Origin: Candidatus Bathyarchaeota archaeon
GTDB lineage: Archaea > Thermoproteota > Bathyarchaeia > Bathyarchaeales > DTEX01
Direction of reading: 5' to 3'
DNA length: 64,000 nt
Assembly (NCBI GenBank): GCA_963714275.1
Contig: CAVQNT010000006.1
Location: forward strand, 22,591-86,590
Shown here: piece after piece, positions 1,502 through 52,676 of the stretch
Layout of the letters: each line of letters starts with the position of its first letter
Numbering within the stretch: position 1 is the stretch's first letter
The notes under the pieces: model-generated
The model's input: the letters and a program-made list of their open reading frames with translations, nothing else
The model's database searches: none
What the model was told of the DNA's origin: nothing
Translations under genes and position numbers: made by a program

Positions 1502-2570
1502 ATGCTTTACAGGGAATACTGGAACCAAGTCTGCGAACATTTTAGGGCTTGGTGGGAAAACGAGCGCGATGAACCCTTAATTCAGGTTGTTGCACCCAAA
1601 AAAGGCCACGAAGGTTCGCAGGGATGGGGGGGCTGGGGATTCGCCAAAGACCCATTGAACCCGGAGAAGACTATCGCCAAGTTCGAGGATTACTGTTTAA
1701 AAGTTTGGTTTGGTGGCGACGCGTATCCTGACTTGTGGATCAACCTTGGTCCGGGGATTGCAGCAACCTTCATTGGCGCAGAACCACGATACCGTGACGA
1801 TTCCGAAACTGTGTGGTTTGAGACTCCCAAAACCTGGGAAGAACTCGAAAAATTAGAGTTCCGTCCACATGGCAAATGGTGGCAAATAACCAAGAACCTC
1901 ACTTCCTATGTGACGGAGAAAAGCCGAGGAAAATTTATGGCTGGAATCACGGATCTGGGCGGAGCAACCGACATCCTTGCTTCGCTGCGTGGCTCACAAA
2001 ACCTAGTCATCGATATGTTCAAAGACGCTGAAAAAGTAAAGGCGCTTTCCCAAAAAATCCTCGAAATGTGGCACACGAGTTATGAAGTACTTTACCGAAT
2101 CTCCGAAGGAACATCTCGCGGAAACTCGGCTTGGATGGGATTGTGGTCGCACGAAAGACTGGTATCCCCTTCAATGCGACTTCGCCGCCATGTTGTCGCC
2201 TAAACTTTTCAGAGAACTTGCGTTCCCCTGTGTAAAGGAACAGTGCGAACGGTTGAATCACACAATCTATCATCTGGACGGTCCAGGAGAGATTCCGCAC
2301 CTGGACACCTTGCTCAGCATACCTGAACTCGACGGAATACAGTGGACGCCCGGAGCAGGCCACTCAACAGTCACCTCGCCTGAATGGTTCAACCTTTACA
2401 GAAAGATACAGGAAAGAGGTAAAAGGCTAGTTTTATTGGACGCCTCTGAAAGCCAAGTTCCGTCTTTGACGAAAAATTTGAATCCTAAAGGACTGTTCAT
2501 CAGAACTTACTGCGAAACAGAAGACAAGGCACATGCTCTTTTAAAGACTCTGAGCTACGATTCTCGTTAA
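1502..2570 (+). CDS. uroporphyrinogen-decarboxylase-like (URO-D/TCP2-like) family protein; reading frame broken near 2150-2165
   Basis: Two overlapping ORF pieces (1502-2203 and 2082-2570) join into one protein. The C-terminal part, LQCDFAAMLSPKLFRELAFPCVKEQCERLNHTIYHLDGPG...GIQWTPGAG, resembles URO-D-fold enzymes. The family call is from memory only. Confidence 0.4.
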
Positions 2571-2743
2571 AGGCAACGATGGAAACATTTTTCAGACCGA
2601 AACGCACAAAATAAAAACAAGTAAACGAGGTTAGGAAACAAAATGAAAATGAAAAGGATTCTTCTTATGGATGTACAAGCAATGTTAATATGAAAGTTCA
2701 GAATATAACTCCTTTATAGTCCATTATTGGGGTAGGACATGTT

Positions 2744-3502
2744 TTGACGATGAACATACTTGAACTGCAGAATGTCGCCATTGAGGTTTCTGGTAAAAAA
2801 ATCTTGGAAGACATTAACCTCGAAATTCCCGAAGGTGAAGTGCACGTTCTTTTCGGTCCAAATGGATCAGGAAAAAGCTCGCTACTCATGACCGTTCTGG
2901 GCATACCGTCCTACAAGGTTACGTCGGGCTCTATATTGTTCAAAGGAAAAGACGTGACCCACATGCCCATAAATGAGAGAGTCAAACTCGGAATGAGTGT
3001 AGCCTTCCAGAACCCTCCAGCCATTCGTGGCGTAAAACTCGGCGGCATACTCGACTATCTGGTTACAGACAAGCAGGAAATAGGGGCACTGATGGAAAAG
3101 GTAAAGTTTCCTCCCGAGTTTCTGGAAAGAGACGTAAACCTAGGATTCTCAGGTGGAGAAGTCAAAAAATCAGAGGTCCTGCAGATTCTCGCTCAGAAAG
3201 GCGACTTTGTTATGCTTGATGAACCAGACTCGGGCGTGGACGTTGAAAATTTGAAGGTTGTCGGAAACCTAATTAATAGCTTGCTTTCGGAAAAATCAGC
3301 CCTTCTAATCACTCATCAAGGTCACATTTTACGGTACGTGAACGCTGATAAAGCCCATGTCCTCATAAAAAGCACAATCGCATGTTCAGGAGAACCCGTA
3401 AACATTCTTACCCAAATTTTGAATGAAGGATACGGTTGGTGCATGAAATGTCCAAAGATCACGAATCTGCAACAAAAGCAAAAGATAAGCCCGCTGCACT
3501 AG
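2744..3502 (+). CDS. sufC: Fe-S cluster assembly ATPase SufC
   Basis: Walker A GPNGSGKSS, ABC signature FSGGEVKK, Walker B FVMLDEPDSGVD. It lies directly upstream of a SufB/D gene. Confidence 0.8.
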   Translation: MTMNILELQNVAIEVSGKKILEDINLEIPEGEVHVLFGPNGSGKSSLLMTVLGIPSYKVTSGSILFKGKDVTHMPINERVKLGMSVAFQNPPAIRGVKLGGILDYLVTDKQEIGALMEKVKFPPEFLERDVNLGFSGGEVKKSEVLQILAQKGDFVMLDEPDSGVDVENLKVVGNLINSLLSEKSALLITHQGHILRYVNADKAHVLIKSTIACSGEPVNILTQILNEGYGWCMKCPKITNLQQKQKISPLH

Positions 3503-4672
3503 GTCCAGACATTAACGTAAACAAATTCACGAGGGAAACAAAAAGCTGGGAATCCTGCCCGATTTCGCAGCTCCCCGAAGATGTGTTGAGACGGGCTTAC
3601 GAAGTGGGCATAGTTCCCGAGAAAGAGTCGCGTTCAGGCACATTTTTCCAGTCTGACCATTCCGTTACCTCGAGAGTAGTTCAAAGCATGTTCGAAGGTA
3701 AAGCCGAAGTCATGAGCACAGCTGACGCCATGAAAAAGTATAACTGGCTCAAAGACTACTGGTGGAAAGTCGTCAAGGTCGACGCGGACAAGTACACGTC
3801 CCTCGCTGAGACGAAATGGGACCAAGGCTACTTCATCAGGATACTGGAAGACCAGAAAGTTATGCTTCCGCTTCAAGCCTGCCTTTTTATCTCTACAAAT
3901 AACCTTGACCAGAATGTCCACAACATCATCATCGCTGAAGCTGGCTCAGAAAGTCAGCTGAATAACAGGCTGTACAACACATCCGAACGTCAACAGCGGA
4001 CTGCACGTTGGAATTTCGGAATTTTTCGTCAAGGAAGACGCGAAGCTCACCTTCACCATGATCCACAATTGGGCGGAAGGATTCGATGTTCGCCCGAGAT
4101 CAGCAGCCATGATCGGGGGCAACGGAGTTTTCGTAAGCAACTACCTATGCTTCAAACCCGTAAAAAGCCTCCAGATGTATCCAACAGCGTACTGCAAGGG
4201 CGTGAACTCGAGAGTTAGCTTCAATAGCATCCTTTACGGCATGAAAGACTCATACATAGATACCGGAGCAAAAGTGGTGCTCCAAAACGAGGGAACAAGA
4301 GGTCAAGTAGTAGCACGGACAATAGCCACCGACAACGCCCAAATCTACGCCCGAGGCTTTCTGCAGGGAGAACACGATGCCAGTAAAGCCCACTTGGAAT
4401 GCCGAGGCTTATTGTTATCCGACAACGCCCAAATTTACGCTATTCCAGAGCTTCTAGCAAAAGCTAAAGGCTCAGACCTTTCGCATGAGGCTGCGGTTGG
4501 AAAAATTTCTGAAGAGCAAGTCCAATACTTAATGGCACGCGGGTTCACCGAAGACGAGGCAACCGCTCTTATAGTCAGAGGATTCATGGATGTAAGCATC
4601 TTTGGGCTGCCCAAGAATTTAGAGAATGAAATCAGACGCATGGTCGACATAACAGCCATTAAAGCCTTGTAG
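3436..4672 (+). CDS. sufB: Fe-S cluster assembly protein SufB/SufD family; frame broken near 3955-3965
   Basis: Pieces 3436-4218 and 4058-4672. Reading the second frame upstream from 3962 gives ITGCTTHPNVNSGLHVGISEFFVKEDAKLTFTMIHNWAEGF. Downstream is LECRGLLLSDNAQIYAIPEL...HEAAVGKISEEQVQYLMARGF, typical of the SufB beta-helix and C-terminus. Confidence 0.75.
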
Positions 4673-11392: not shown

Positions 11393-11511
11393 TGGTGCGG
11401 GGAGCGGGATTTGAACCCGCGAACCCCTAAGGGACAGGCTCCTGAAGCTTGCGCGCCCTTGTTTGTGGTTGTTTGGGTTCTGCGCCTTTGACCTGGCTTG
11501 GCGACCCCCGC
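11393..11511 (-). tRNA. tRNA-Leu(CAG), class II, with a ~31-nt intron inside the anticodon stem and encoded CCA
   Basis: Minus strand reads GCGGGGG TC GCC AAGCCAGGTCAAA GGC G CAG [AACCCAAACAACCACAAACAAGGGCGCGCAA] GC TTCAGGA GCCTG T CCCTTAGGG GTTC GCGGG TTCAAAT CCCGC TCCCCGC A CCA. Removing the bracketed segment gives a perfect CAGGC/GCCTG anticodon stem, loop UUCAGGA and a long variable arm. Confidence 0.75.
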
Positions 11512-36454: not shown

Positions 36455-36840
36455 AATTTTTGCCTCCTACAATCCTATCAGCAACCGCCTTTAAACTGTT
36501 AAAGGTTTCGAAAGAAAATGGCTTCTAGAAGCTGTCTTATTTGTGTAACAACCGAGTTTTCCATTTGTGTAACAAGAAAAAGGTATGGTTTGTCGTCAAC
36601 TGTTTTTTATTGTTGGATCGAGCTAAATGGAAAAATTTCTTTTCTCGCTATTCTGGTTGTATATGTGCATCATATGTTGGAGGAGGGGGATTTACAGCCT
36701 TTTTCTTTGTCAAGATTTTTATTGCAATGACAGCGGGCGGAAGGATTAAGGCTACCAGCAATATAAGCATGAAGGGATTTATCATGTTAAATGTTTTTAG
36801 TAATCATTTTTATTATTTATACCATATTATCCAGTTAAGG

Positions 36841-36914
36841 AGCCTCAGGCGGGATTTGAACCCGCGGTCTCCACCTTACCAAGGTGATGCCCTAACCAGC
36901 TGGGCCACTGAGGC
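36841..36914 (-). tRNA. tRNA-Thr(GGU)
   Basis: Minus strand reads GCCTCAG TG GCCC AGCTGGTTA GGGC A TCACC TTGGTAA GGTGG AGACC GCGGG TTCAAAT CCCGC CTGAGGC T. This is a clean cloverleaf with anticodon GGT and no encoded CCA. Confidence 0.85.
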
Positions 36915-41053: not shown

Positions 41054-42342
41054 TTGGCTCTTAAATGGATTAAAAGAATTTTTGCGAAGGACACAGCTGA
41101 ACCGGGCATCAGAGGAGCTGGAGCCACCAGCCAAGCGGACTTTGGCACTCCGATAAGTGACACTGATCTTCTTTTCGCTGTTAAAAGGGAGCCTGTTGCA
41201 CATCGCATCGTCTTCATGGTTGCGCATGACATTTTTGATAACTGGTTCAGCGTTGACGTTGCAGGCGAAAAAAGGCCTGATACAAGATTTAACGATCAGA
41301 TCCAAACGGTTCTTGATGATCTTGAAGCAAAATCTGTTTTTACGGAGATGGCTGTTTATGAGAGGCTTTACGGTGAAGCAGTCGTCCTCGTCGGTTATTC
41401 TGATTATGGAAAGGACCTTATAAAACCCGTTAAGGATCCTCAAAGCATCGAGGATCTTGTGGCTTACAGTCCTCTTGACTTTAATGTTTCTTCTTCTGAC
41501 GAAGACAGGGATCCGAAAAGTCCTCGTTACGGGCTTCCAGAATTTTACACTTTTGTTCGAGGCAGCCAAACTGTAAGGGTTCATTATAGCCGAGTTATCC
41601 ATTCTGCGACAAGGCTGTTGGATCATCCTTACAGAGGTCTCAGCACCCTTGAACCCGTGTATGATGACCTTACCGTCTTGCGTAACATTCGCTGGGGTAT
41701 GGGTCAAACTATGGTTCGTTACGGTGGCGGTTTCCCTGACATCACATTGAAAGGTAAAGACGCGGACAAGATTGACGACTTCATTATGGGCAAACAGATG
41801 GAGACCGTTAACGCTAGGACATATTTTGTGCATAACGAGCTTCAAGAGCTTGAGTTTAAGGGCGTAGGCGGAGTTACGCTTGACCCAGAAAAGTATTATG
41901 TGCCCATCATGGAAAGCATCAGCGCAGGCTCCGGGATTCCATTAGCCATTTTACGGGGTGCCAGACTGGAGCATTAACTGGTTCAGAGGTTAATGAACGG
42001 GAATATTTCAAGCTCATAAGTGATGCTCAAAGCCGTTACGAGCCTGGAGTCCGAAAATTGCTTGATATGCTTATCGAATGTGGACAGGTCCGTTGGTTCT
42101 ATAATGTGCCCAAGAAATATCGGGTCAGCTGGGGAGGAGGCTTCGAAGTAAACGAGAAGGACCAGGCCTTAACACAACTTTCAGTAGCGCAGGCAATGAA
42201 TCTCCACTCAAACTGGATGACTTTGAATGAGCTTAGAGCAACGATGGATCCACCGCTTCCTGCCCTTCCAAGTCCTCAGGGAGATCTTATTCTCGGGTTG
42301 GAGAAGCTGCAGCAGTCACAGAAATTATTGTCACCTATTTAG
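41054..42342 (+). CDS. portal protein (DUF1073-type); frame broken at about 41957-41960 (GCCAG where GCCCAG is expected)
   Basis: RLYGEAVVLVGYSD, VRVHYSRVIHSATR, and ISAGSGIPLAILRGA then (shifted) QTGALTGSEVNEREYFKLISDAQSRYEPGVRKLLDMLIE. This is the conserved DUF1073 portal core as I recall it. Confidence 0.7.
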
Positions 42343-42344
42343 AG

Positions 42345-43239
42345 ATGGTTGAAATGATGAAGATTGGAACATCGCAAGTTGAGTTGGATTCGACAAAAAT
42401 CTTGAAGGAAGACGATGAAGAATTAGTCCTTCCCGGCATCCTTGCTCGCGAAGGCGTTTTTCCTTATCCTGGAGGACGAGCGTTTAGACCTCGTGAAAGA
42501 CTGAAGTCAAGGCTAAAGACTTTCGAGGTGCCTAGAGTATTCGACTCAGAGACATCCTGATTCTATGGTCTTGACAGATCCTGATTTATGTGTCGGCAAA
42601 GTTGACGGTGTGACTTGGAATGAAGATAAAGGCGAAGTTCACGGTAATGTCCATTTATTCAAAAATTGCTTAACTCCTGAGTTTCTTGCTGGAGTTAAAT
42701 CTGGTGCATTTTCTAAAAATAGCATGGGGTTTCTTTTCAGGGAAGATGCGACCAGTGGCGAATTTAATGGTCAAGCGTATGATTATGTGCAGCGGAAGAT
42801 TCTTGTGGATCATATAGCCGTGGGAGTTCCGAACCCGAGAGATCCAGGTTGCATCCTTGGCGTAGATGATTTTTCAAGTGAAATAAGTGTGAACCTTAAG
42901 GGCGCTGATGCTTGGGAAACAAGTTTCATTAACGACCTGCCTGACTCGTCCTTCGCATACGTCGAGGATGGCGGAAAAAAGGATGATGAAGGCAAAACTG
43001 TTCCCCGAAGCCTTAGGCACCTACCCTACAAAAACGGTCAAGGCACCATTGACCACGACCACCTCGTTAACGCTCTTGCAAGGGTTAGCCAGTCTGCAAC
43101 TTTGCCTGAAGGCGGAAAGACAGCTGCTAAAGACAAATTGTGTGGCGCAATCCGTAGCTGGAACAATGAACACGCTGACAGCAAGATTGAGTCAGAAGTT
43201 TGTGGCGTAACGGGAGATTGTCTCCTGGACGCCTTTTGA
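42345..43239 (+). CDS. DUF2213-like head-morphogenesis protein (putative prohead protease/scaffold-associated); frame broken near 42548
   Basis: LPGILAREGVFPY...HPDSMVLTDPDLCVGKV...NSMGFLFREDATSGEFNGQAYDYVQRKILVDHIAVGVPNPRDPGC matches the DUF2213 pattern (S.G...G...YD..Q..I..nH.A.V...R). It lies immediately after the portal gene. Confidence 0.5.
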
Positions 43240-43369
43240 GGAGATTGAGAGGTCAAAGAGACTGTTCATAGTCACTAAATTCAACAATTTAGGGATAGAA
43301 TTGCATCGAGATGATGGTGCTGAGACTCACGACGGGTCTTTAAACTAGCAAAAAAATGGAAAAAAGAAA

Positions 43370-43782
43370 ATGTCAAATCAGGACGGGTCAGATGCGGAAC
43401 AAAACAAAGCCATAAAGGTTACTATTGACCAGGTGATGGCTGAAAACCTAAGTTTGAAGCAGATAGTTCAAGATCTGGACCAAACTGTGAAGGATCTTAC
43501 ATCTCAGCTTAAGGCTGCGAATGACGTGCTTGAAGCGCAAGCGAGGGCGAAGTTGATTGCGGAAATCAAACCCCGCAGCAGATATTCTGACGAGGACTTA
43601 ACGAAACTTTCGCTTGACGACTTAACAAACATCAAGGTTACGCTTGACAACGCTAAAATGTCGAACTTACAAGAACATCCACTTCGGTCCCCTAGGGATT
43701 GATGAAGCGCAAGGACGAGGGACTAACCGTAGGAGACCTATCGGTTGTCACAGAAGCTAAACGCAAAGCAAGGAGCGCATAA
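43370..43782 (+). CDS. coiled-coil scaffolding-like protein; 3' end frame-broken
   Basis: Heptad-rich KQIVQDLDQTVKDLTSQLKAANDVLEAQARAKLIAEIK. Its position between the portal/DUF2213 genes and the capsid genes fits a scaffold. Confidence 0.45.
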
Positions 43783-43784
43783 GT

Positions 43785-44261
43785 ATGCCACAATTTCTCG
43801 TTAAACCCACGAACCAAGTTGTGGTTCAGGGCAACCCGATAAAGGTTGAATACGAAGTTGGAGCGAATGCTACGGCTGCAAAAATGCTTCCTGGAAGACT
43901 TGTAATCTATGACACTGTTGCTAAGGCTGTTAAAGAGGCTGGAGCCGAAGCTGACAACGTTTTAGGATTCCTTGATGTCGCAGCTGAATATCTTGAAGCT
44001 ACACATTACGAGGTAGGCGACCAAGTCTTGGTTGTCATGGGTGAATGTATCGCTAAACTAACTTTGTTGGCAAGCGAAAACGTTGCTCCTGGAGACTGGT
44101 TGGTTGCTGCTGCTGATGGAAAAGTTGCGAAGCAAGCTGTTGGTGCTATGGGGGCTCAGGGAATGCCTGTTGGGCAAGCTTTGGAACTGAGTAATGTTAC
44201 GGTTGACGCTGAGATCTTGGTTCATTGGATTCCGTGCGCTGAGCCTGCTGCTGCAAGTTAA
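43785..44261 (+). CDS. DUF2190-like capsid decoration/cement protein
   Basis: 158 aa, Gly/Ala/Val-rich beta protein (LPGRLVIYD...VLGFLD...VGDQVLVVMGECIAKL...VAPGDWLVAAADGKVAK) directly upstream of the capsid gene. Confidence 0.4.
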   Translation: MPQFLVKPTNQVVVQGNPIKVEYEVGANATAAKMLPGRLVIYDTVAKAVKEAGAEADNVLGFLDVAAEYLEATHYEVGDQVLVVMGECIAKLTLLASENVAPGDWLVAAADGKVAKQAVGAMGAQGMPVGQALELSNVTVDAEILVHWIPCAEPAAAS

Positions 44262-44273
44262 GGGTGATCTGAT

Positions 44274-45152
44274 ATGAAACCGCTTACAAAAGTTGGTTTA
44301 GAAACAGGTTCCTTAACTGATGAAGAACTCCGTTACCTTGACGGCAGAGTTGTTGAAACGGTGAGACCTCTGCTTGTTGGTAGACGGTTGTTCCCAGTGT
44401 TCAGGCTTCCGAACGCAGGAATTAAGACTGTCCGAGGCTGGAAAGAAACGGACATGAGCCAAGCGACGATTGACATGAACGGTCAGGTAGACGCTTTTGA
44501 CAGGATTGAACTCGCAGAATTCGACATCAAAGTGCCAGTGATAGCCAAAGGCTTCAGATTGAATTGGAGAGACATCCTCGCTTCACGTAACGGCGGAATT
44601 CCGATTGACGCCCGAAGCATAGAGAATGCTGCTCGACAATGCGCTGAAGAAGAAGATCAACTACTGTTAACTGGAGAACGGACAAGTTGGAAGGCTCTCG
44701 GAATCGAAGGATTAGCTACTGCTACGGGCAAAGAAACTCAGGGGTCAGCTGGAGCTTGGGGAGCAAACAGCATCGTCGACGTTAGTGCTTGCATTGCTAA
44801 GCTTGAGGCAGGCGGACACTACGGTCCTTACGCTTTAGTCGTGAGGTCAGCGTGGTATGCGAAGCTGAGAGCATTGATTGCTAACACAGGCATCTTTTAC
44901 CTCGAAAAAGTCGCTGAGCTCGTGAAGGCAGGAATCTTCGTGAGCGACAACCTCTATTCAAGCGCTGATGCGACAACAATCGCATTAGTCGTTGAACCAA
45001 CTCAGGAAAACTTTGAGCTCGTAGTCGGACAAGACATGAACACGTGGACAGTTCAAGACGAAAACATGAACACTAAAGGCAAAGTTTACGAGGTCGTTGC
45101 GCCCCGCATCAAAAGACCTGAATCTATCTGTGTTTTGACTGGATTATCTTAA
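44274..45152 (+). CDS. HK97-fold major capsid protein, encapsulin-like
   Basis: 292 aa, alignable by eye along its whole length to family-1 encapsulin shell proteins: LTDEELRYLDGRVVETVRPLLVGRRLFPV; IELAEFDIKVPVIAKGFRLNWRDI; IENAARQCAEEEDQLLLTG; GPYALVVRSAWYAKL; ALVVEPTQENFELVVGQDMNTW...KVYEVVAPRIKRPESICVL. Confidence 0.7.
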   Translation: MKPLTKVGLETGSLTDEELRYLDGRVVETVRPLLVGRRLFPVFRLPNAGIKTVRGWKETDMSQATIDMNGQVDAFDRIELAEFDIKVPVIAKGFRLNWRDILASRNGGIPIDARSIENAARQCAEEEDQLLLTGERTSWKALGIEGLATATGKETQGSAGAWGANSIVDVSACIAKLEAGGHYGPYALVVRSAWYAKLRALIANTGIFYLEKVAELVKAGIFVSDNLYSSADATTIALVVEPTQENFELVVGQDMNTWTVQDENMNTKGKVYEVVAPRIKRPESICVLTGLS

Positions 45153-45228
45153 GGGGCGCTAAGGTAGTCCTAATAAAATTTTTTCCTCCGCTTTTTAGGA
45201 GCGTTCAATACGAGTAGTCATCAAAAAC

Positions 45229-45561
45229 ATGGAGAAAAAAGGATTGCCAGAACTGATAGCGTATGCGGGACCGATAGAGACGACAGATGCTTACGCGACA
45301 GCATTGAAGGTTAAGCTTCCCCCTCAAATCAGCAAGGCCATGGTTCACATTAAGGAGCTTGACGTGAACGATATTGATTGGAAGATTCTCGGCAGCATAG
45401 ATGATGACATCTATTTTGAGGAAAACGCTGAAGCAACAGTCACGAAAGACGATTCAGATGTCCACGAAGTAACGAAAGCGTGGATTTACCTTGACATCCA
45501 GGTGAAGTCTACCGTGTCCAACAATTCAGGCGAGATTGCAGTCGCAGTTTCAGGGGCTTAA
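45229..45561 (+). CDS. hypothetical acidic protein (possible minor head/connector protein)
   Basis: 110-aa ORF immediately after the capsid gene. No recognisable motif. Confidence 0.3.
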   Translation: MEKKGLPELIAYAGPIETTDAYATALKVKLPPQISKAMVHIKELDVNDIDWKILGSIDDDIYFEENAEATVTKDDSDVHEVTKAWIYLDIQVKSTVSNNSGEIAVAVSGA

Positions 45562-45564
45562 GCG

Positions 45565-46410
45565 ATGAGATTCAGGATCTTACCGAAAGTCAAAAGTTTC
45601 AGTGACGCTGCGGGAAACCTTCATTGTCCTGGAGACATCGTAGATCTTCCGCCTAGTTATCTTGGCGAAAATTGGCTTGAGCCAGTTGACAAGGTTGACG
45701 TCAAAAAGACTGAGGCACGTTTGGAACCTTCCAAGCCTGTTGCGGAGAAAGAAGCAGTTGTCCCCTTCGAGACCCCAAAGACGCAGAGGAAGGTAAAAAA
45801 AAAGTTAAAGTCCTAATCGGCGTTCCATGCCTGAACGACAAGGACAGGTATGCAGGTTACAGAGACTTAATCTTATATGCTGCTGAACTGTCGATTGGAG
45901 ACGTAGAACACAGCGTTTATGTTTCTCCGAATTCGAGGGCAATCGAGGTATACGGGATAGTTGAATGCGACAACGACATAGTCAAATATTTTTTGAGCAA
46001 AGATTTTACGTATCTTTGGATGGTTGAGCTTGACACCGTTGTCCCTAAAGACGCTTTCTCTCGAGCTTTTTGGTTTAGACGTTGACATTGCCCTCGGTTA
46101 TTTTCCGAGCCACCGAGACTTTAACAGGCTGATCGCTGGCTGGATCGGTGAAGACGGTAAAGTCTACTATCTTCCACGGTTCGCGTTGAAGGGTCAGGTC
46201 CTGCGTGGCTGGGTTTTCGCTGGGACAGGATGTATGCTTGTTAAAAGGCGTGTCTTCGAGGTTGGGGGAATCCGTTTCAAATACAATCCTGACGTCGGTG
46301 GACCTGACGTTTCATTCATGTTTGATTCTTTGCGAAGAGGGTTTACTGCAGCCCTCCATGGAGACGTAGAATGCGGACACTTGCCTGAATGGCTGTTGAA
46401 GGAGGGTTGA
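45565..46410 (+). CDS. GT-A-fold (GT2-like) glycosyltransferase with an ~80-aa N-terminal extension; joined across an A9 tract (45795-45803) and a second break near 46060
   Basis: The GT frame is open from 45714 but has no ATG/GTG/TTG before VKVLIGVPCLNDKD. It continues LWMVELDTVVPKDA (DxD-like), then GWVFAGTGCMLVKRRVFEVGGIRF. The upstream ORF 45565-45816 ends in the A9 run. Confidence 0.45.
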
Positions 46411-47090: not shown

Positions 47091-47146
47091 GCTTAGCTAA
47101 TTGGTCTATGAATCTGTTATAGTAGTCTATTGGCTCAAATAACTAT

Positions 47147-47874
47147 CTAGATTTTCCAGAAAGCCATGTATCCCCTTCTTTGTTTTTTCATTTCCTTCAC
47201 TCTTTGTTCTAGGTCAGCTTTGCCTTTTTCATATTCTTCCTTCTTTATCAAATCATCTTCAAACATCTGCTTCAATAGAATAGGTAGAATTTCGGCAACT
47301 GGCGGAGTTATTTGATTAAAAAACTCATCGATTTTTTCTTTAGGTATCATAAAAAGATTCTTAGAAGTTTCTTCGACAAAGGATATAAAGTCTGAAAAAA
47401 TTTCCTTGGCAGACACAAAATCCAACTGTGCGAAATCCATCGGATTTTTCCATTCACTATTCTTATGGTCGACATATAGACAGACTTTCTCGAACCCTTC
47501 TAAATTCATTGACAGCCTCGCCAAGTTCTTTTATCGATTTTTCTATTTCCTGTCTGGACGGCTTTTTCTTGGGATAGACTAGTTCTCCCCTCTTCTGACT
47601 TGCGTAGATGCCAAGGGCGAAGGCTGTTTTAGATTTGTGGTCCATTAAATCCTTTCTTACTTTTTCATCGTATTCAAAAAAACCCACATAAGTCATCGCA
47701 TAAAAATATGCCTTTGCCAGCTTCCTCCATTGCAGTAAAGTATAGGAAGAAAGCATGGGCAAAACTATTATTCTCTGCCAATATGTCTGCGTCTTGCGTA
47801 AGACGATTCACATGATCCATACAGATATCTCTGCCTTTTCTAAAATCAATTTGTTTTAGCATGTTCATCCCCAT
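47147..47874 (-). CDS. AbiV-like HEPN-domain abortive-infection protein; 2 frame breaks
   Basis: Three pieces (47674-47874, 47463-47762, 47147-47524). N-terminal RLTQDADILAENNSFAHAFFLYFTAMEEAGK, then DHKSKTAFALGIY and KVCLYVDH, resemble the AbiV family pattern (from memory). Confidence 0.45.
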
Positions 47875-47888
47875 TCTTCATAATAACA

Positions 47889-48164
47889 TTACAACATACT
47901 ACTGGTTACAATCATATATCTTAATCCACAAGAACCTTGAATGCGAGATATGTTAACAACACGAACGCGCGCTTCATTTCTTCTATACAAAATTCTTCCG
48001 TGAGGTTCCGTAAATAATTTCGTTCCGCATTTCTTACAATAGAAGGTTTTACCACCGAAAAAAATGTTTTTTACTTCATAACAATTTTTGCATATAGTAA
48101 AAGCTAGTGAACTGTAGCCAGCTATAAAATTGGCGCATGTGGTACTCTTGGTGCGCGCACACAC
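47889..48164 (-). CDS. zinc-ribbon protein
   Basis: CKNC...CKKC pairs in a 91-aa ORF with a GTG start. Confidence 0.4.
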   Translation of the reverse strand: MCARTKSTTCANFIAGYSSLAFTICKNCYEVKNIFFGGKTFYCKKCGTKLFTEPHGRILYRRNEARVRVVNISRIQGSCGLRYMIVTSSML

Positions 48165-48262
48165 ACATTTCTAACTAAATGATAAAAATCACAAAAATAT
48201 TTTGTCAAGAACTGTCAAAAATAAAAAATGTCAATTCGTCAATGTCAAAAATCGCAGGCTCA

Positions 48263-49702
48263 CTAACGTATTTTCATTTTGCATATATTACCGAGAAATT
48301 CTTGGTTCAAGGGTTTATTTGGACCAGTGTTTTTCACACTTCTTATCTTTACCTTATAAAATGCTTTTTCGTGCTCTTGAAAATAAGCAGATGTTGTTAG
48401 AATAACTGCATTTACTCTTTTCGTTAGTTTCAGTTTTCCTTTTAATCCGTTTTCAAGAAGCATTAAATCTCTTGCAAGCTCCTTCTCGTCCCTGTAAAAC
48501 CCCATGTTCATTTCGATGTAGATTATTCCAGGTCCCTCTGTGGGTATCTGAGTATAGGCATGATCAAATGAATTAAGAATACCTTTTATTCGATCAGGTA
48601 AGAGCGACGAAACAAACACCACAAGACGGGGATTCTTGTGCTTAGGCTCAGGGGCATTAATCGATACGTTATCTCTTTCCAGATAGAGATCTATTACAGG
48701 ATTTGTCCAATCAAAACTAAATCCATCCATACTTGGTTTGATGTTTTCATCTGAATGGTGATAAATATCTAGCGTAGGTTCATGCATATTAACATTAAAT
48801 TCTCGGAGATCGGGCTTAAAATGACCGTCTATAACATTGTTTAATTTAGGGAATTCTTTCAAAATTATTTGGAATTTATTTGCTGTAAATACCCCGCATT
48901 TTGAGTTTTTAATTGAAGTTTGAATGTATTCTATTAGAAAGTCTTTATCTGCCGTTGTTAGATCTGAATCTGTTTTAACAACAGCAGCGTAATTTTTCCC
49001 AAGGTTATCTAAAGCCTTCAGAACATTTACTAAGATTTCATCCCAGAGGTATTGGTTGCGCATGTCTCTTTGTGACTTCTTATCTTTTTGCTTGCATTCA
49101 ACATAGACTTTCTCTCCATCTTTTTCAACGCACATATCTGGCGTCTTCTCTTTTTCTTCCTTAATAAAGCAAACTTGGTATCCTGCTCGCTTGAGAGAAG
49201 ATGCTACTTTTATCTCATATACAGCCTTCTCAAAACTCACAGAATCTGTTAATCTTGTTCTCCACATTTTTCGAGTACTATTTTTTATCTTTCTGCCATC
49301 CTTGCTAATCAATGCAATAGATTCTATTTCCATTAAATTATTACCAAGATCAAATAACTCCAACAATTCCTTTGTAAAAGAATGGGTTTGCTTTTGAAGG
49401 AGACTTTGATAATTAGGATAGCCTTTTCGCCACAAAGCAATAAGAGGATTAGGAGTTGGGCTGATCAGATGCCCATATTTCTTAGGTTTATGATCTGTAC
49501 TTGCTTTCGCTATAATTATTGGTTTGTGCTCAGAAACCTTGAAAAATTCTTCCCCAGTAGTAGATACGACCTTTTCTATGGCTAGGCGAATGCTATCTAT
49601 TGTTATTTTCCATTCCTTGTAAGTCATAATTTCAATCGACGATGAAATAAAATGTACTTTAACTTTTATATAGCGTGCGCTGGTAGATACAAAAAGAGTC
49701 AA
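48263..49702 (-). CDS. large hypothetical protein with a PD-(D/E)xK nuclease-like core (probable start at ATG 49627)
   Basis: FEKAVYEIKVASSLKRAGYQVCFIKEEKEKTPDMCVEKDGEKVYVECKQK has the E...PD...ExK arrangement. The remaining ~300 aa have no motif I recognise. The gene is AT-rich. Confidence 0.4.
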   Translation of the reverse strand: MTLFVSTSARYIKVKVHFISSSIEIMTYKEWKITIDSIRLAIEKVVSTTGEEFFKVSEHKPIIIAKASTDHKPKKYGHLISPTPNPLIALWRKGYPNYQSLLQKQTHSFTKELLELFDLGNNLMEIESIALISKDGRKIKNSTRKMWRTRLTDSVSFEKAVYEIKVASSLKRAGYQVCFIKEEKEKTPDMCVEKDGEKVYVECKQKDKKSQRDMRNQYLWDEILVNVLKALDNLGKNYAAVVKTDSDLTTADKDFLIEYIQTSIKNSKCGVFTANKFQIILKEFPKLNNVIDGHFKPDLREFNVNMHEPTLDIYHHSDENIKPSMDGFSFDWTNPVIDLYLERDNVSINAPEPKHKNPRLVVFVSSLLPDRIKGILNSFDHAYTQIPTEGPGIIYIEMNMGFYRDEKELARDLMLLENGLKGKLKLTKRVNAVILTTSAYFQEHEKAFYKVKIRSVKNTGPNKPLNQEFLGNICKMKIR

Positions 49703-50111
49703 TTATTCTGATAATTAACAAAGCACGCTTTATTGTCTAGTTAGTCTATTTTTTTTTTTAGTTGCTTTTTTGAGAATATCTACCATATAATCATGTAGCG
49801 TTTTTCCTTCTAAGGCTGCTTTTGAGACATGATACATGTTTTCATCATTCGTACACATGTAATATTGTTAAAGTCCCTCCCTAACCACTACACTTTTCTG
49901 TATTTGGAATCATTTGCCCTATGAGACTATGGACAGATATTTTACTAATACTGTTTCAGGATATCCATAAAAAATAAAAAAAACACCAATATATAGTATT
50001 ATATATAATCTCCCCCTTTTCTGGGCATTTTATATACCATAAAACATATATGTTGGAAAACTATACTTTTACAATATATATCCAAAGTATAAGAAATGTG
50101 GAATAAGACTA

Positions 50112-50819
50112 TTGCCACTATATAGGATTCAAAGGGATGATGTGTTGCGTAAAGAAGAGATAGATAGTCTCTTGAATCAATGCACACAAAACTTAATTGA
50201 TGGAAAAAAAGTAATTGAAAAAGAGTATGGATTATTTCCTATCAAGTTTAGCCCACCAATGATTCAATGTTTCATTGCACTTGAATGGCTGTTTGGCAAA
50301 CGGATAAGGGAAACATTAAGGCTTAGGCGTCAAGATGTTTATTGGGATGATGAATACCTTTGTGTCAACTTCACTGTCCAAAAGAAGAAGAATAGAAAGG
50401 CAACTTCAGCACCACAGAGGACTTTAAAGAAAATATCATTAAGCAATCCTTACACACGATATATCATTGACTACGTTTCCACAATAACTGATGGATGGAT
50501 ATTCAAGGGTGCAAAGGGAAGGCGTGAGAAAACAGTATATTGGAAAGATGATGAGGGGAAAATAATAAAGTCCTATCATTATGTTGATGAGGATGAGGGG
50601 CGTTTATCTCAGGAGTATGCCTTACAGATTTTAAAAGCATTGGATATGAACATTTGTTGCCATCTTTTCCGTCACAGTTTAGCAACACTAATGGCTGAAC
50701 ATGAAGCAACCCAAGAAGATTTAATGAATTGGTTCGATTGGGACCGGGTTGATACAGCTCATAATTATGTTAGGGGTGGACCAAGGATGACAAAGAAGTG
50801 GAGTGACAGAACATGGTAA
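50112..50819 (+). CDS. tyrosine recombinase/integrase (short form)
   Basis: FGKRIRETLRLRRQDV (Arg I), CCHLFRHSLATLM (HxxR), and VDTAHNYVRG (Tyr). Confidence 0.7.
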   Translation: MPLYRIQRDDVLRKEEIDSLLNQCTQNLIDGKKVIEKEYGLFPIKFSPPMIQCFIALEWLFGKRIRETLRLRRQDVYWDDEYLCVNFTVQKKKNRKATSAPQRTLKKISLSNPYTRYIIDYVSTITDGWIFKGAKGRREKTVYWKDDEGKIIKSYHYVDEDEGRLSQEYALQILKALDMNICCHLFRHSLATLMAEHEATQEDLMNWFDWDRVDTAHNYVRGGPRMTKKWSDRTW

Positions 50820-50836
50820 GGGAGGTGACTTGAGCA

Positions 50837-51049
50837 ATGAATAAAATATCAAAATGGAGTAGATTAGATTATTATTTCCATGAGAATTGGTTCCATAAAT
50901 ACATCCATAGAAAACTAAGAGGTGAGGATGTTAAGCTGGCAAGACAACTCCTGAAGCAACATCCAGATTGGAGTAAGAGAGAATGTGTGGAGCAGGCTAC
51001 ATCAATGATGCTTAGGAAGAGGGCTGAAGAAAAGTTGGAGAGAGTTTAA
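50837..51049 (+). CDS. hypothetical small protein (HPDWS family, copy 1)
   Basis: 70-aa ORF reading ...KYIHRKLRGEDVKLARQLLKQHPDWSKRE... Confidence 0.4.
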   Translation: MNKISKWSRLDYYFHENWFHKYIHRKLRGEDVKLARQLLKQHPDWSKRECVEQATSMMLRKRAEEKLERV

Positions 51050-51064
51050 AGGAGGTGATAAAGA

Positions 51065-51233
51065 ATGAATAAGCTCTTTTATGAAACTACAGGAGTATGT
51101 CCACAATAAAGAGGCAGAGGAAAAAATCAAATTAACACAGAAACTGAAGAAGGAGCACCCTGATTGGAGTGATGACGCAATCTGGGTAGCAGCTACAATG
51201 AAGGTCAATGAGTGGAGAATGGAAAGACTTTAA
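51065..51233 (+). CDS. hypothetical small protein (HPDWS family, copy 2); frame broken near 51090
   Basis: MNKLFYE then (shifted) LQEYVHNKEAEEKIKLTQKLKKEHPDWSDDAIWVAATMKVNEWRMERL*. It is clearly paralogous to the preceding ORF. Confidence 0.35.
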
Positions 51234-51603
51234 CATATTAAGTAAAATTGGTGTGGATAGCGAATATTTGGAATCTTCGAACGTCCCAAATGTTCGGTAA
51301 CATGTCTAGACTTGGAATCTGGACTATAAAATAAAAAAAATTCTATCTATTTTAATGAACAATGATTGAATATAATGTTAGAACTATATTTTTTGGCCAG
51401 TTTGAGCAATTGAGTTGATGTGATACAACAATAATGAGCCTAAAACCAGTGATAGTGATGTGATAAATCTCGTTGTATTCATAGAGTATTGAAAAAGTGT
51501 GTAGATATTCACATAGTAGGATAAAGAACCTTGTAAATGAAGATTAGGTATTGAAACAGATGATGATACTATAAGGGCTGTCGCCCTTTAACCTAACCCT
51601 GAA

Positions 51604-52380
51604 TCATGTCAAATCCTCATAAAAATAGCGAAAGTCAGGACGCCAGAAATTGTGAAATGGTTTCAAACCAAACACCTTATCAACGTTAAAGATTTTAATA
51701 TCCCTCAAGTAAATTTGCATCAACCTTAACCATCTAGGCACATGAATCACTTGTTTTCTACCCATCATACAAACTTTTTCAGTTCGTTTACCATCAGCAA
51801 CTATGAAATAATTAGCCTTTCTCCAAACTGCAATGTACTTGTAATGACCTTGTAACTCAAAATCAATACCAACGTCCTTTGTGACTTTTTCTGATATTTC
51901 CTTAGCCAAATCATTTGTTATTCCACTAACGTAAAGGCTATCAGTGTGACCAAGTAAGACCTTGCCATTGTTCTCTTTGATTATCCTTACGATATCTTGT
52001 ATAACACCCTCTGTAATCTCGGAAATTTGCCCACCCATGTTAACCATAATGATGTTAAGGTTGTAACATTCAATCATTTGGGCTCTTGTCAAGTTTCCAT
52101 TGTGGAAGATAATTTTGATTGCATCTGGATACATAAGAAGTTCATTTATTGTTATATCCCATCTCTCTGGGCTGGCATAACTATACCTTGCCCAATTCCA
52201 TACTTGACCAACAATGAGCTTATCTCCCGCCCACGCAAATAGGTCAACACCAGCCTCCCAGACTTTGTGTACTTGGACGTTATACCCTAATATGGCAATA
52301 ACAATTGCAGACTACTCTCTCCCCAATACTGCCTGTGTACAAATTATGATACATTTTTTTGGGATAGGAAGGTAACTCAT
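51604..52380 (-). CDS. calcineurin-like metallophosphoesterase (phage Ser/Thr-phosphatase-like), with an in-frame TAG at 52312-52314
   Basis: Ordered motifs GVDLFAWAGDKLIVG (GD), IIFHNGN (GN), and VLLGHTDS (GHxx), with spacing like small MPEs. Motif I (DxH) is not recognisable (AILGYNVQVH). Confidence 0.4.
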
Positions 52381-52676
52381 TTTTAAGTGTGTCTTCAATA
52401 GATGATGTCTCTATTATTTGGTTTTTATACATTCATTTTTCATCAACTAGTGATTGTACTTTTGTAAGAGGTCACTTATATTGTTTTTGTATATAACTTT
52501 ACTTATAATCCGTATAGTTGATGTATTTTCCGTATAGTTCCACAATATTTCAAAAATTTTATAGAGAAAGACAAAAGGAAGTCTACTTTTAGGACTAGGC
52601 ATAATCGCTCTGACCTACAGCGCGCGCTAGCAGGACAAATTTCTTTAACTATTAAGAAACTGAAAAAATTGGGAGA

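Follow-up and report, generated by a model that had tools for sequence, protein, structure and literature searches.

Do three co-oriented reading frames beside an archaeal integrase gene encode one defence system, or are they separate pieces of cargo? The question is raised by an AT-rich block in a 64,000-nucleotide stretch of a Candidatus Bathyarchaeota archaeon genome (contig CAVQNT010000006.1), which is referred to here as the window. An earlier note on this DNA had read the three open reading frames (ORFs) as genes for an AbiV-like HEPN protein, a zinc-ribbon protein and a large PD-(D/E)xK protein, and had suggested a candidate defence or superinfection-exclusion locus. The answer that we consider probable is that the block is the variable cargo arm of an integrase-bearing island and that it holds two independent, self-contained defence-type genes, not one system. 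The island would be an AT-rich unit of roughly 6 kb that lies beside the remnant of a tailed-provirus head module in a Bathyarchaeia chromosome.

The ORF listing bears out the limits and the shared minus-strand orientation of the three frames (Table 1). They are separated by gaps of 14 nt (between the zinc-ribbon ORF and the AbiV gene) and 98 nt (between the nuclease gene and the zinc-ribbon ORF) and lie, as had been described, between a structural module with an HK97-type capsid gene and a tyrosine integrase gene. Their AT-richness relative to the surroundings is equally clear from the GC profile, with a GC fraction of 0.33–0.38 at 47.0–50.0 kb versus 0.43–0.50 at 41–46.7 kb and 0.44–0.51 at 53–55 kb. 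The low-GC stretch is larger than had been claimed: it exceeds the three-ORF block, extends over about 47.1–53.1 kb (to ~53.08 kb) and takes in the integrase. The window is archaeal and encodes an HdrA/FlpD fusion, a Sec61-type SecY and ribosomal protein S5; for the last, identity to the best matches does not exceed 84%, and nearly all of these come from Bathyarchaeia metagenome-assembled genomes.

Co-occurrence of the three reading frames

According to the earlier note, a HEPN RNase, a zinc-ribbon protein and a large nuclease would make up one new three-gene defence or superinfection-exclusion system, and a failure of the three genes to occur together elsewhere was named there as the finding that would speak against it. 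The co-occurrence test covered ten independent contexts of the nuclease family other than the window and one AbiV context (L092, which holds the closest AbiV homologue). Neither an AbiV gene nor a zinc-ribbon ORF accompanies the nuclease in any of the ten, and in L092 no zinc-ribbon-like ORF is present in the 288 nt upstream of the AbiV homologue (zero of one AbiV context). The common orientation, the short gaps and the low GC content that the three ORFs have in common argue for a single system. Apart from the counts above, this proposal is opposed by the lack of support for the zinc-ribbon ORF as a gene (see below), by the fact that AbiV is known to work without such partners and by oligo-T runs past the nuclease stop codon, which suggest separate transcripts. 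Because the trio never co-occurs in the contexts examined, the three-gene reading fails, and we regard it as most improbable.

The AbiV-family gene

Judged by its sequence, the first gene is a genuine AbiV-family HEPN gene, as had been proposed, but it is not a single ORF. Its pieces lie in three frames (47874–47680, 47708–47475 and 47491–47150), and two frameshift repairs are needed to join them. The repaired 243-amino-acid product matches the Pfam family HEPN_AbiV (PF18728) with an E-value of 1.3e-19 and 71.3 bits (cutoff 27.1) and the PADLOC AbiV model with 4.4e-14. The intact homologue P0159 (262 amino acids) is colinear with it over 235 residues at 49% identity, spanning both shift sites. 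Homologues are few: the word-indexed search returned only two (49% and 45% identity).

In Lactococcus AbiV the catalytic Rx4–6H motif is 91-RNHKSKH-97, and this motif is not strictly conserved across the AbiV family (bioRxiv 10.1101/2024.05.05.592566). The R-x5-H…KSK segment of the window protein falls in the same region. Further points of likeness are the scores against the Pfam and PADLOC models, which are well above threshold, and the arrangement as a short stand-alone gene with a non-coding-looking stretch directly upstream. Unlike its lactococcal counterpart, the window gene has an archaeal (Bathyarchaeia) host and is frameshifted in the assembly, its protein is ~40 residues longer at the C-terminus and no abiV2-like RNA is detectable at the locus. 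By analogy with Lactococcus AbiV, the product would be a toxin that acts as an RNase on ribosomal RNA, thereby aborting infection, and that is restrained until infection occurs; the copy seen here would be disabled by its two frameshifts or, more probably, is mis-assembled.

The frameshifts bear on a further explanation, in which the block is decaying cargo: the AbiV gene would be a true pseudogene, the small ORF noise and the nuclease the only open gene, all in a degenerate provirus. Two frameshifts within 730 bp of AbiV sequence are in agreement with this, as are the reduction of the neighbouring provirus to its head module and the rearrangement, relative to the related contig L106, of the ORF to the right of the integrase. 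However, P0163, a 225-amino-acid ORF of a near-identical sister genome (70.8 bits against HEPN_AbiV), is open through both shift sites, and the window sequence contains no stop codons outside the shifts and is 49% identical over its full length to an intact homologue. Frameshifts also occur elsewhere in the window, at roughly one per 1–3 kb where this can be checked: in the gene for the portal around 41960 (by comparison with L093), in a GFO/IDH/MocA oxidoreductase gene at 53823–53923 and in the SecY gene at about 61199–61204 (relative to L012). Since SecY is essential and is frameshifted as well, the assembly probably contains indel errors. Because the sister genome reads through and the SecY and portal genes are also shifted, the two AbiV frameshifts are more likely to be assembly indels than true decay, and decay of the block is in our view unlikely. 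An exact-sequence look-up found the two larger AbiV fragments as separate gene calls on the contig of this genome.

The putative zinc-ribbon reading frame

The cysteine pattern that led the second frame to be called a zinc ribbon is present (Table 1), but its standing as a gene is not borne out by any family, homologue or coding bias. Neither PADLOC nor PHROG matches the ORF, Pfam gives nothing above threshold, and tblastn finds no match to it in any fetched locus. The protein collection lacks its exact product but includes four from flanking genes on the contig (two AbiV fragments, the integrase and a 176-amino-acid ORF). At −0.03 to −0.12 bits per codon, its codon usage scores below the +0.15 to +0.35 of confirmed genes, this being a weak test at such a length. 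Probably neither the AbiV nor the nuclease gene has a functional partner in this ORF, which may be no gene at all.

Lactococcus AbiV requires an element of ~170–180 nt directly upstream, abiV2, which is an RNA antitoxin (bioRxiv 10.1101/2024.05.05.592566). The zinc-ribbon ORF ends 14 nt before the AbiV start and thereby occupies the position of abiV2. The 276-nt stretch could in principle be the abiV2 counterpart, either as an RNA or as a small protein, and the block would then consist of a two-part AbiV module akin to type III toxin–antitoxin systems together with an unrelated nuclease. This would agree with the location of the essential RNA-acting region directly upstream of abiV1 in Lactococcus, with the lack of coding bias in the stretch and with its absence from the protein collection. 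On the other hand, the predicted RNA fold is no better than that of shuffled sequence (z = +0.78), no sequence conservation exists with the region upstream of P0159 in L092, no repeats were found, and the Lactococcus element has no defined signature or model for comparison. We consider an abiV2 counterpart quite unlikely. A motif common to the window and L092, TAGCTGGCTA, is not enriched and was treated as chance.

Between the nuclease gene and the zinc-ribbon ORF, the 98-nt spacer contains a cluster of TTGACA hexamers between T5–T6 runs (Table 1). Four copies in 46 nt correspond to a Poisson p of about 5e-7 per 60-nt interval and of about 5e-4 over the whole window. The cluster could be an operator or an iteron-like array, or could reflect terminators, and the T5–T6 runs could act as archaeal terminators that separate the nuclease transcript from AbiV.

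The predicted nuclease and its family

From its sequence, the third gene carries a conserved PD-(D/E)xK catalytic set. The ORF stands as described, whereas the size given for the protein (455–479 amino acids) does not: homologue starts and public gene calls place the start at ATG 49627, which gives 454 amino acids. The E…PD…ExK core that had been noticed is present, with TPDMCVEKDGEKVYVECKQK at residues 162–181, and its catalytic columns are the best conserved among 61 diverse relatives. In the alignment of these 61 sequences (A2; mean column identity 13%) Glu177 is the sole invariant column, and columns Pro61, Glu138, Ala142, Asp164, Cys178, Lys179 and Gln360 are conserved to at least 90%. 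The catalytic set is likewise conserved in alignments A1, A3 and A4.

A word-indexed search of 5.8 billion proteins returned six clusters of the close subfamily (one at 99% and five at 41–50% identity), to which a second such search with A3 added little. When the nuclease alignment was used for a full HMMER pass, 504 representatives had E ≤ 1e-3 and 189 had E ≤ 1e-10, mostly 400–450 amino acids long and matching profile positions of about 138–432; the family amounts to about 500 clusters across archaea and bacteria. No subfamily match was obtained when A1 was scanned against 185,579 species-representative genomes. Scans of IMG/VR with A1, AbiV, P0012, P0022 and the integrase gave no matches, nor did tblastn against GenBank phages and PLSDB plasmids. 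The rarity of the close subfamily, with six clusters and none in the species representatives, fits horizontal transfer.

No model for the nuclease exists in Pfam, NCBIfam or PADLOC (PADLOC-DB v2). Among the 61 relatives, three match Mrr_cat weakly, one matches Hjc and two weakly match the Mrr-like region of ZorD, while PADLOC matches to other systems are scattered and weak (1/61 each). A weak link to phages exists through phrog_37220, a phage protein family with no assigned function, which is matched by 28 of the 61 (best E-value 8.5e-9); the window nuclease matches it with its core only (residues 126–202, E-value 7.5e-5). Some family members have variable N-terminal extensions, either a TPR fusion or extensions of about 280 amino acids. 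We regard the 454-amino-acid protein as an uncharacterized candidate single-gene defence nuclease.

The AlphaFold (AF2) model of the nuclease, calculated with a deeper alignment, has a pLDDT of 86.7 and a pTM of 0.84. The predicted layout consists of an N-terminal helical region (residues 1–127), a core with the order α-β-β-β-α-β (residues 132–240) and a conserved C-terminal α/β domain (residues 285–454, approximately). Foldseek gives local, non-significant resemblances to Hjc (the top one), I-Ssp6803I, VRR-NUC and restriction endonucleases, and a sequence-profile search against the PDB gave no match. Pfam, Foldseek and the PDB profile search gave no relatives, in sequence or in fold, for the ∼300 residues that surround the core.

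The closest points of comparison are the Mrr/type IV and Hjc-type nucleases (PF04471 and PF01870). The E…PD…ExK set has Hjc-like spacing, the core of the model appears to follow the same α-β-β-β-α-β order, and the family similarly lacks an adjacent methyltransferase and is found in mobile or defence-type neighbourhoods. In contrast to these enzymes, the window nuclease scores below the Mrr_cat gathering score, has no full-length structural match and contains about 300 extra residues in its N-terminal helical and C-terminal α/β parts. Mrr typically has an N-terminal winged-helix DNA-binding domain; none was found in the window nuclease, as checked by Pfam only. Shedu (SduA, DUF4263) is similar in architecture only: a PD-(D/E)xK core sits in a single large protein, some members have variable N-terminal extensions and the distribution is patchy. 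Unlike in Shedu, the core is central rather than C-terminal and is followed by a conserved extra C-terminal domain, and the window nuclease has no PADLOC or Pfam match to Shedu or to any other named system.

Genomic surroundings of the nuclease homologues

The nuclease occurs as a solo gene in mobile or defence-type surroundings. A tyrosine recombinase gene is its neighbour in L004, an IS3 transposase gene in the bacterial locus L005/6 and GmrSD together with a CcdA-like gene in L011, while in L107/8 a PIN-domain gene lies 33 nt upstream. Other contexts differ: L100 has no recognisable partner, L102/104 has an M48 peptidase and a 716-amino-acid multi-pass membrane protein (a P-type ATPase by eye), and L001, L002/3 and L096 have archaeal housekeeping neighbours together with a conserved small convergent gene. 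No DNA methyltransferase gene adjoins the nuclease in the window or in any of the ten other contexts.

The small convergent gene (89–109 amino acids) is 53–65% identical between loci and belongs to no Pfam family. It faces the closest nuclease homologues tail-to-tail in three neighbourhoods that otherwise differ, and this closest subfamily may have a partner or a regulator in it. In L008 and L098 a protein of 668 amino acids with multiple helix-turn-helix (HTH) motifs (2193–4199 and 2329–4332, respectively) begins 4 nt after the nuclease homologue P0012, perhaps as its partner in an operon in this branch of the family.

In the window, a 42-codon ORF (Table 1) immediately upstream of the nuclease has a sequence (…KTLHDYMVDILKKA…) that resembles, by eye only, the helical part of a ribbon-helix-helix protein. 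It has no PHROG match and may have been truncated by an indel. A small upstream antitoxin-like partner of the nuclease was rejected, since no equivalent upstream gene is conserved across the contexts.

These surroundings bear on whether the 454-amino-acid protein might instead be a DNA-processing nuclease of the cell or of a mobile element, for example for recombination or the resolution of junctions, for repair or for maintaining the element, rather than one for defence. The Hjc-type catalytic spacing, the local fold matches headed by Hjc and the one family member that matches Pfam Hjc are all consistent with such a role, as is the position of several homologues among housekeeping genes with a conserved small neighbour. 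It is harder to reconcile with the extremely patchy distribution and absence from species-representative genomes, with the recurrence beside an integrase, IS3, GmrSD and PIN genes, with the swappable slot occupied here and with the variable N-terminal fusions, such as TPR, of some members. Variable N-terminal fusions are typical of conflict systems. A DNA-processing role is thus somewhat unlikely in our estimate.

The integrase and the cargo slot

The reading of the block as variable cargo is carried by a comparison with L106, a 4.3-kb metagenome contig from another sample. The window at 49946–50826 and L106 at 2137–3018 are 94.8% identical over 886 nt, a segment that includes the integrase gene and the region upstream of it, and a second match (window 52341–52838) is 96% identical. 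The similarity breaks off at 49946, and this point is the border of the variable slot. To the left of this breakpoint L106 (487–1941) does not carry the nuclease gene, the small ORF or AbiV; in their place are a gene for a DndB/DGQHR protein (PF14072, 66.6 bits) and a 162-amino-acid ORF. With a DndB-like gene filling this slot beside a near-identical integrase backbone, what lies upstream of the integrase is cargo that can be exchanged and is of a defence-like kind, and the earlier description of the block as accessory cargo next to the integrase is upheld. The DndB/DGQHR protein of L106 has a Cys-rich region at its N-terminus.

The arrangement resembles integrase-side defence or 'moron' hotspots in that an AT-rich accessory arm adjoins the integrase and a near-identical backbone carries different defence-type cargo. 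It differs from them in that there is one comparison element only and no att sites were identified, and in its uncultured archaeal host, for which no such hotspot was found described in the searched literature.

Several observations weigh against the view that the block is a cargo arm with two independent defence-type genes. For the island itself, its limits follow from composition and the single comparison with L106; there are no convincing direct repeats at its edges that could serve as att sites and no tRNA-Thr copy near 47–53 kb. For the AbiV gene, the window copy may really be dead. For the nuclease, the tie between the family and defence has no experimental or database support and no PADLOC model; the match to Mrr_cat (PF04471) reaches 15.6 bits (E-value 0.018) and stays below the 21-bit gathering score; Foldseek of the model against the PDB and BFVD gives nothing at E ≤ 1e-3; about half of the contexts are ordinary housekeeping ones (L001, L002, L096 and L102/104); and the small convergent gene, although conserved in the closest subfamily, is missing from the window, so that the nuclease may ordinarily work with a partner.

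Possible mode of action and significance

With a cargo arm of two self-contained genes as the preferred reading, the nuclease would act alone. We infer what the two proteins would do as enzymes and which parts the extra domains of the nuclease play; its target, its regulation and a role in defence are deduced from context and architecture only. The Hjc/Mrr-like E…PD…ExK site suggests a metal-dependent DNA endonuclease, and the N-terminal helical and C-terminal α/β domains may recognise the target or control the nuclease. Because it has no partner methyltransferase, the protein might restrict DNA in the modification-dependent (type IV) manner or might be a nuclease that infection triggers.

A bolder proposal, which we put forward tentatively, would make the 454-amino-acid protein the founding member of a new family of antiviral nucleases that stand alone, in which the core would be governed by the helical module and by a C-terminal domain of a fold unseen in solved structures, with the small convergent gene product as a possible partner in the closest relatives. 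On this view the island would be a hotspot for defence genes, where AbiV and the nuclease are exchanged for DndB-type cargo.

Bathyarchaeia are abundant uncultured sediment archaea, the antiviral repertoire of which is known only from database scans. The locus appears to be an integrase-side cargo slot that exchanges defence-type genes between near-identical elements. It places a predicted AbiV-family RNase gene, which is of a known type but has an unusual host, in a Bathyarchaeia lineage, and the nuclease family, with a few hundred clusters, no name and a confident model, is a concrete and cheap candidate for defence-gene testing. If the nuclease is not a defence gene, the locus would be an ordinary accessory island.

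The neighbouring head module, a possible provirus remnant, and other features

Table 1. Features of the window and the small convergent gene of other loci. Positions are those of the window unless a locus is named.
Feature	Position	Strand	Basis or remark
AbiV-family HEPN RNase gene, predicted (AbiV-like ORF set)	47147–47874	minus	ORF listing (47147–47524, with upstream pieces to 47874); Pfam PF18728 and PADLOC AbiV, after two frameshift repairs
HEPN R-x5-H motif RKDLMDH, then KSK	47637–47657	minus	Read from sequence; kept in P0159 and P0163
'Zinc ribbon' ORF, 91 codons, GTG start	47889–48164	minus	ORF listing; CKNC-x14-CKKC (CxxC-x14-CxxC); doubtful gene
Four exact TTGACA hexamers and one TTGACG, between T5–T6 runs	48203–48248	minus	In 98-nt nuclease/zinc-ribbon spacer
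Large-protein ORF	48263–49702	minus	ORF listing; gene proper 48263–49627
Solo PD-(D/E)xK nuclease gene, predicted, family without a name	48263–49627	minus	Homologues, conservation, AF2 model
Catalytic residue E138	49216–49214	minus	Alignment A2
Catalytic residues P163-D164	49141–49136	minus	Alignment A2
Catalytic residues E177-C178-K179	49099–49091	minus	Alignment A2
42-codon ORF	49730–49858	minus	Just upstream of nuclease; codon score +0.15 to +0.21; ends in A10–11 run
AT-rich island, GC about 0.29–0.39	47100–53080		Composition; cargo arm, integrase and small ORFs
Backbone segment common with L106, integrase included	49946–50826	plus	blastn
Tyrosine integrase gene	50112–50819	plus	PF00589 34.1 bits, cutoff 27.1; phrog_216 integrase 3e-10
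Two small ORFs after integrase	50837–51049, 51081–51233	plus	HPDWS-centred motif in common, paralogue-like, no family
ORF without known family	51604–52134	minus	In AT-rich island
ORF	52690–52845	minus	Ribbon-helix-helix-like by eye
Portal gene	from 41054		Head module, with decoration protein and HK97-type capsid
HK97-type capsid gene	44274–45152		Linocin_M18 1.4e-32; 5' flank of block
Small convergent gene	L001 11440–11709, L002 11349–11678, L096 2145–2435		Convergent with nuclease homologue

The head module beside the island (41054–46400) encodes a portal, a DUF2213-family protein, a decoration protein, an HK97-type capsid and small head proteins, with possible protease or scaffold ORFs nearby. 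Its proteins are 38–81% identical to those of three IMG/VR contigs of 38–44 kb (L093–L095), the capsid proteins being 66–73% identical. Synteny with these contigs extends only from 41105 to about 46400; in their fetched parts of ∼20 kb no homology to the window was found outside 41.1–46.4 kb, and neither a terminase gene nor tail genes could be recognised. The module looks like a provirus remnant or a capsid-only element, and the window from 46.4 kb onwards is outside the conserved virus genome.

To the right of the integrase, L106 has a gene with a single ORF of 238 amino acids (3219–3935), while the window region 51604–52432 (minus strand) is split and has a different middle part. The ORF at 51604–52134 was considered as a piece of PolB, and this was rejected: neither Pfam nor PHROG gives a match, and the motif is missing from the version in L106.

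Eighteen nucleotides of the 3' half of tRNA-Thr(GGU) are present twice on the same strand, in exact copies 25 kb apart (11404–11421 and 36849–36866). The tRNA-Thr(GGU) gene itself lies at 36839–36914 on the minus strand, and metabolic genes occupy the region between the two copies. The duplication could be att-like or could have arisen by chance.

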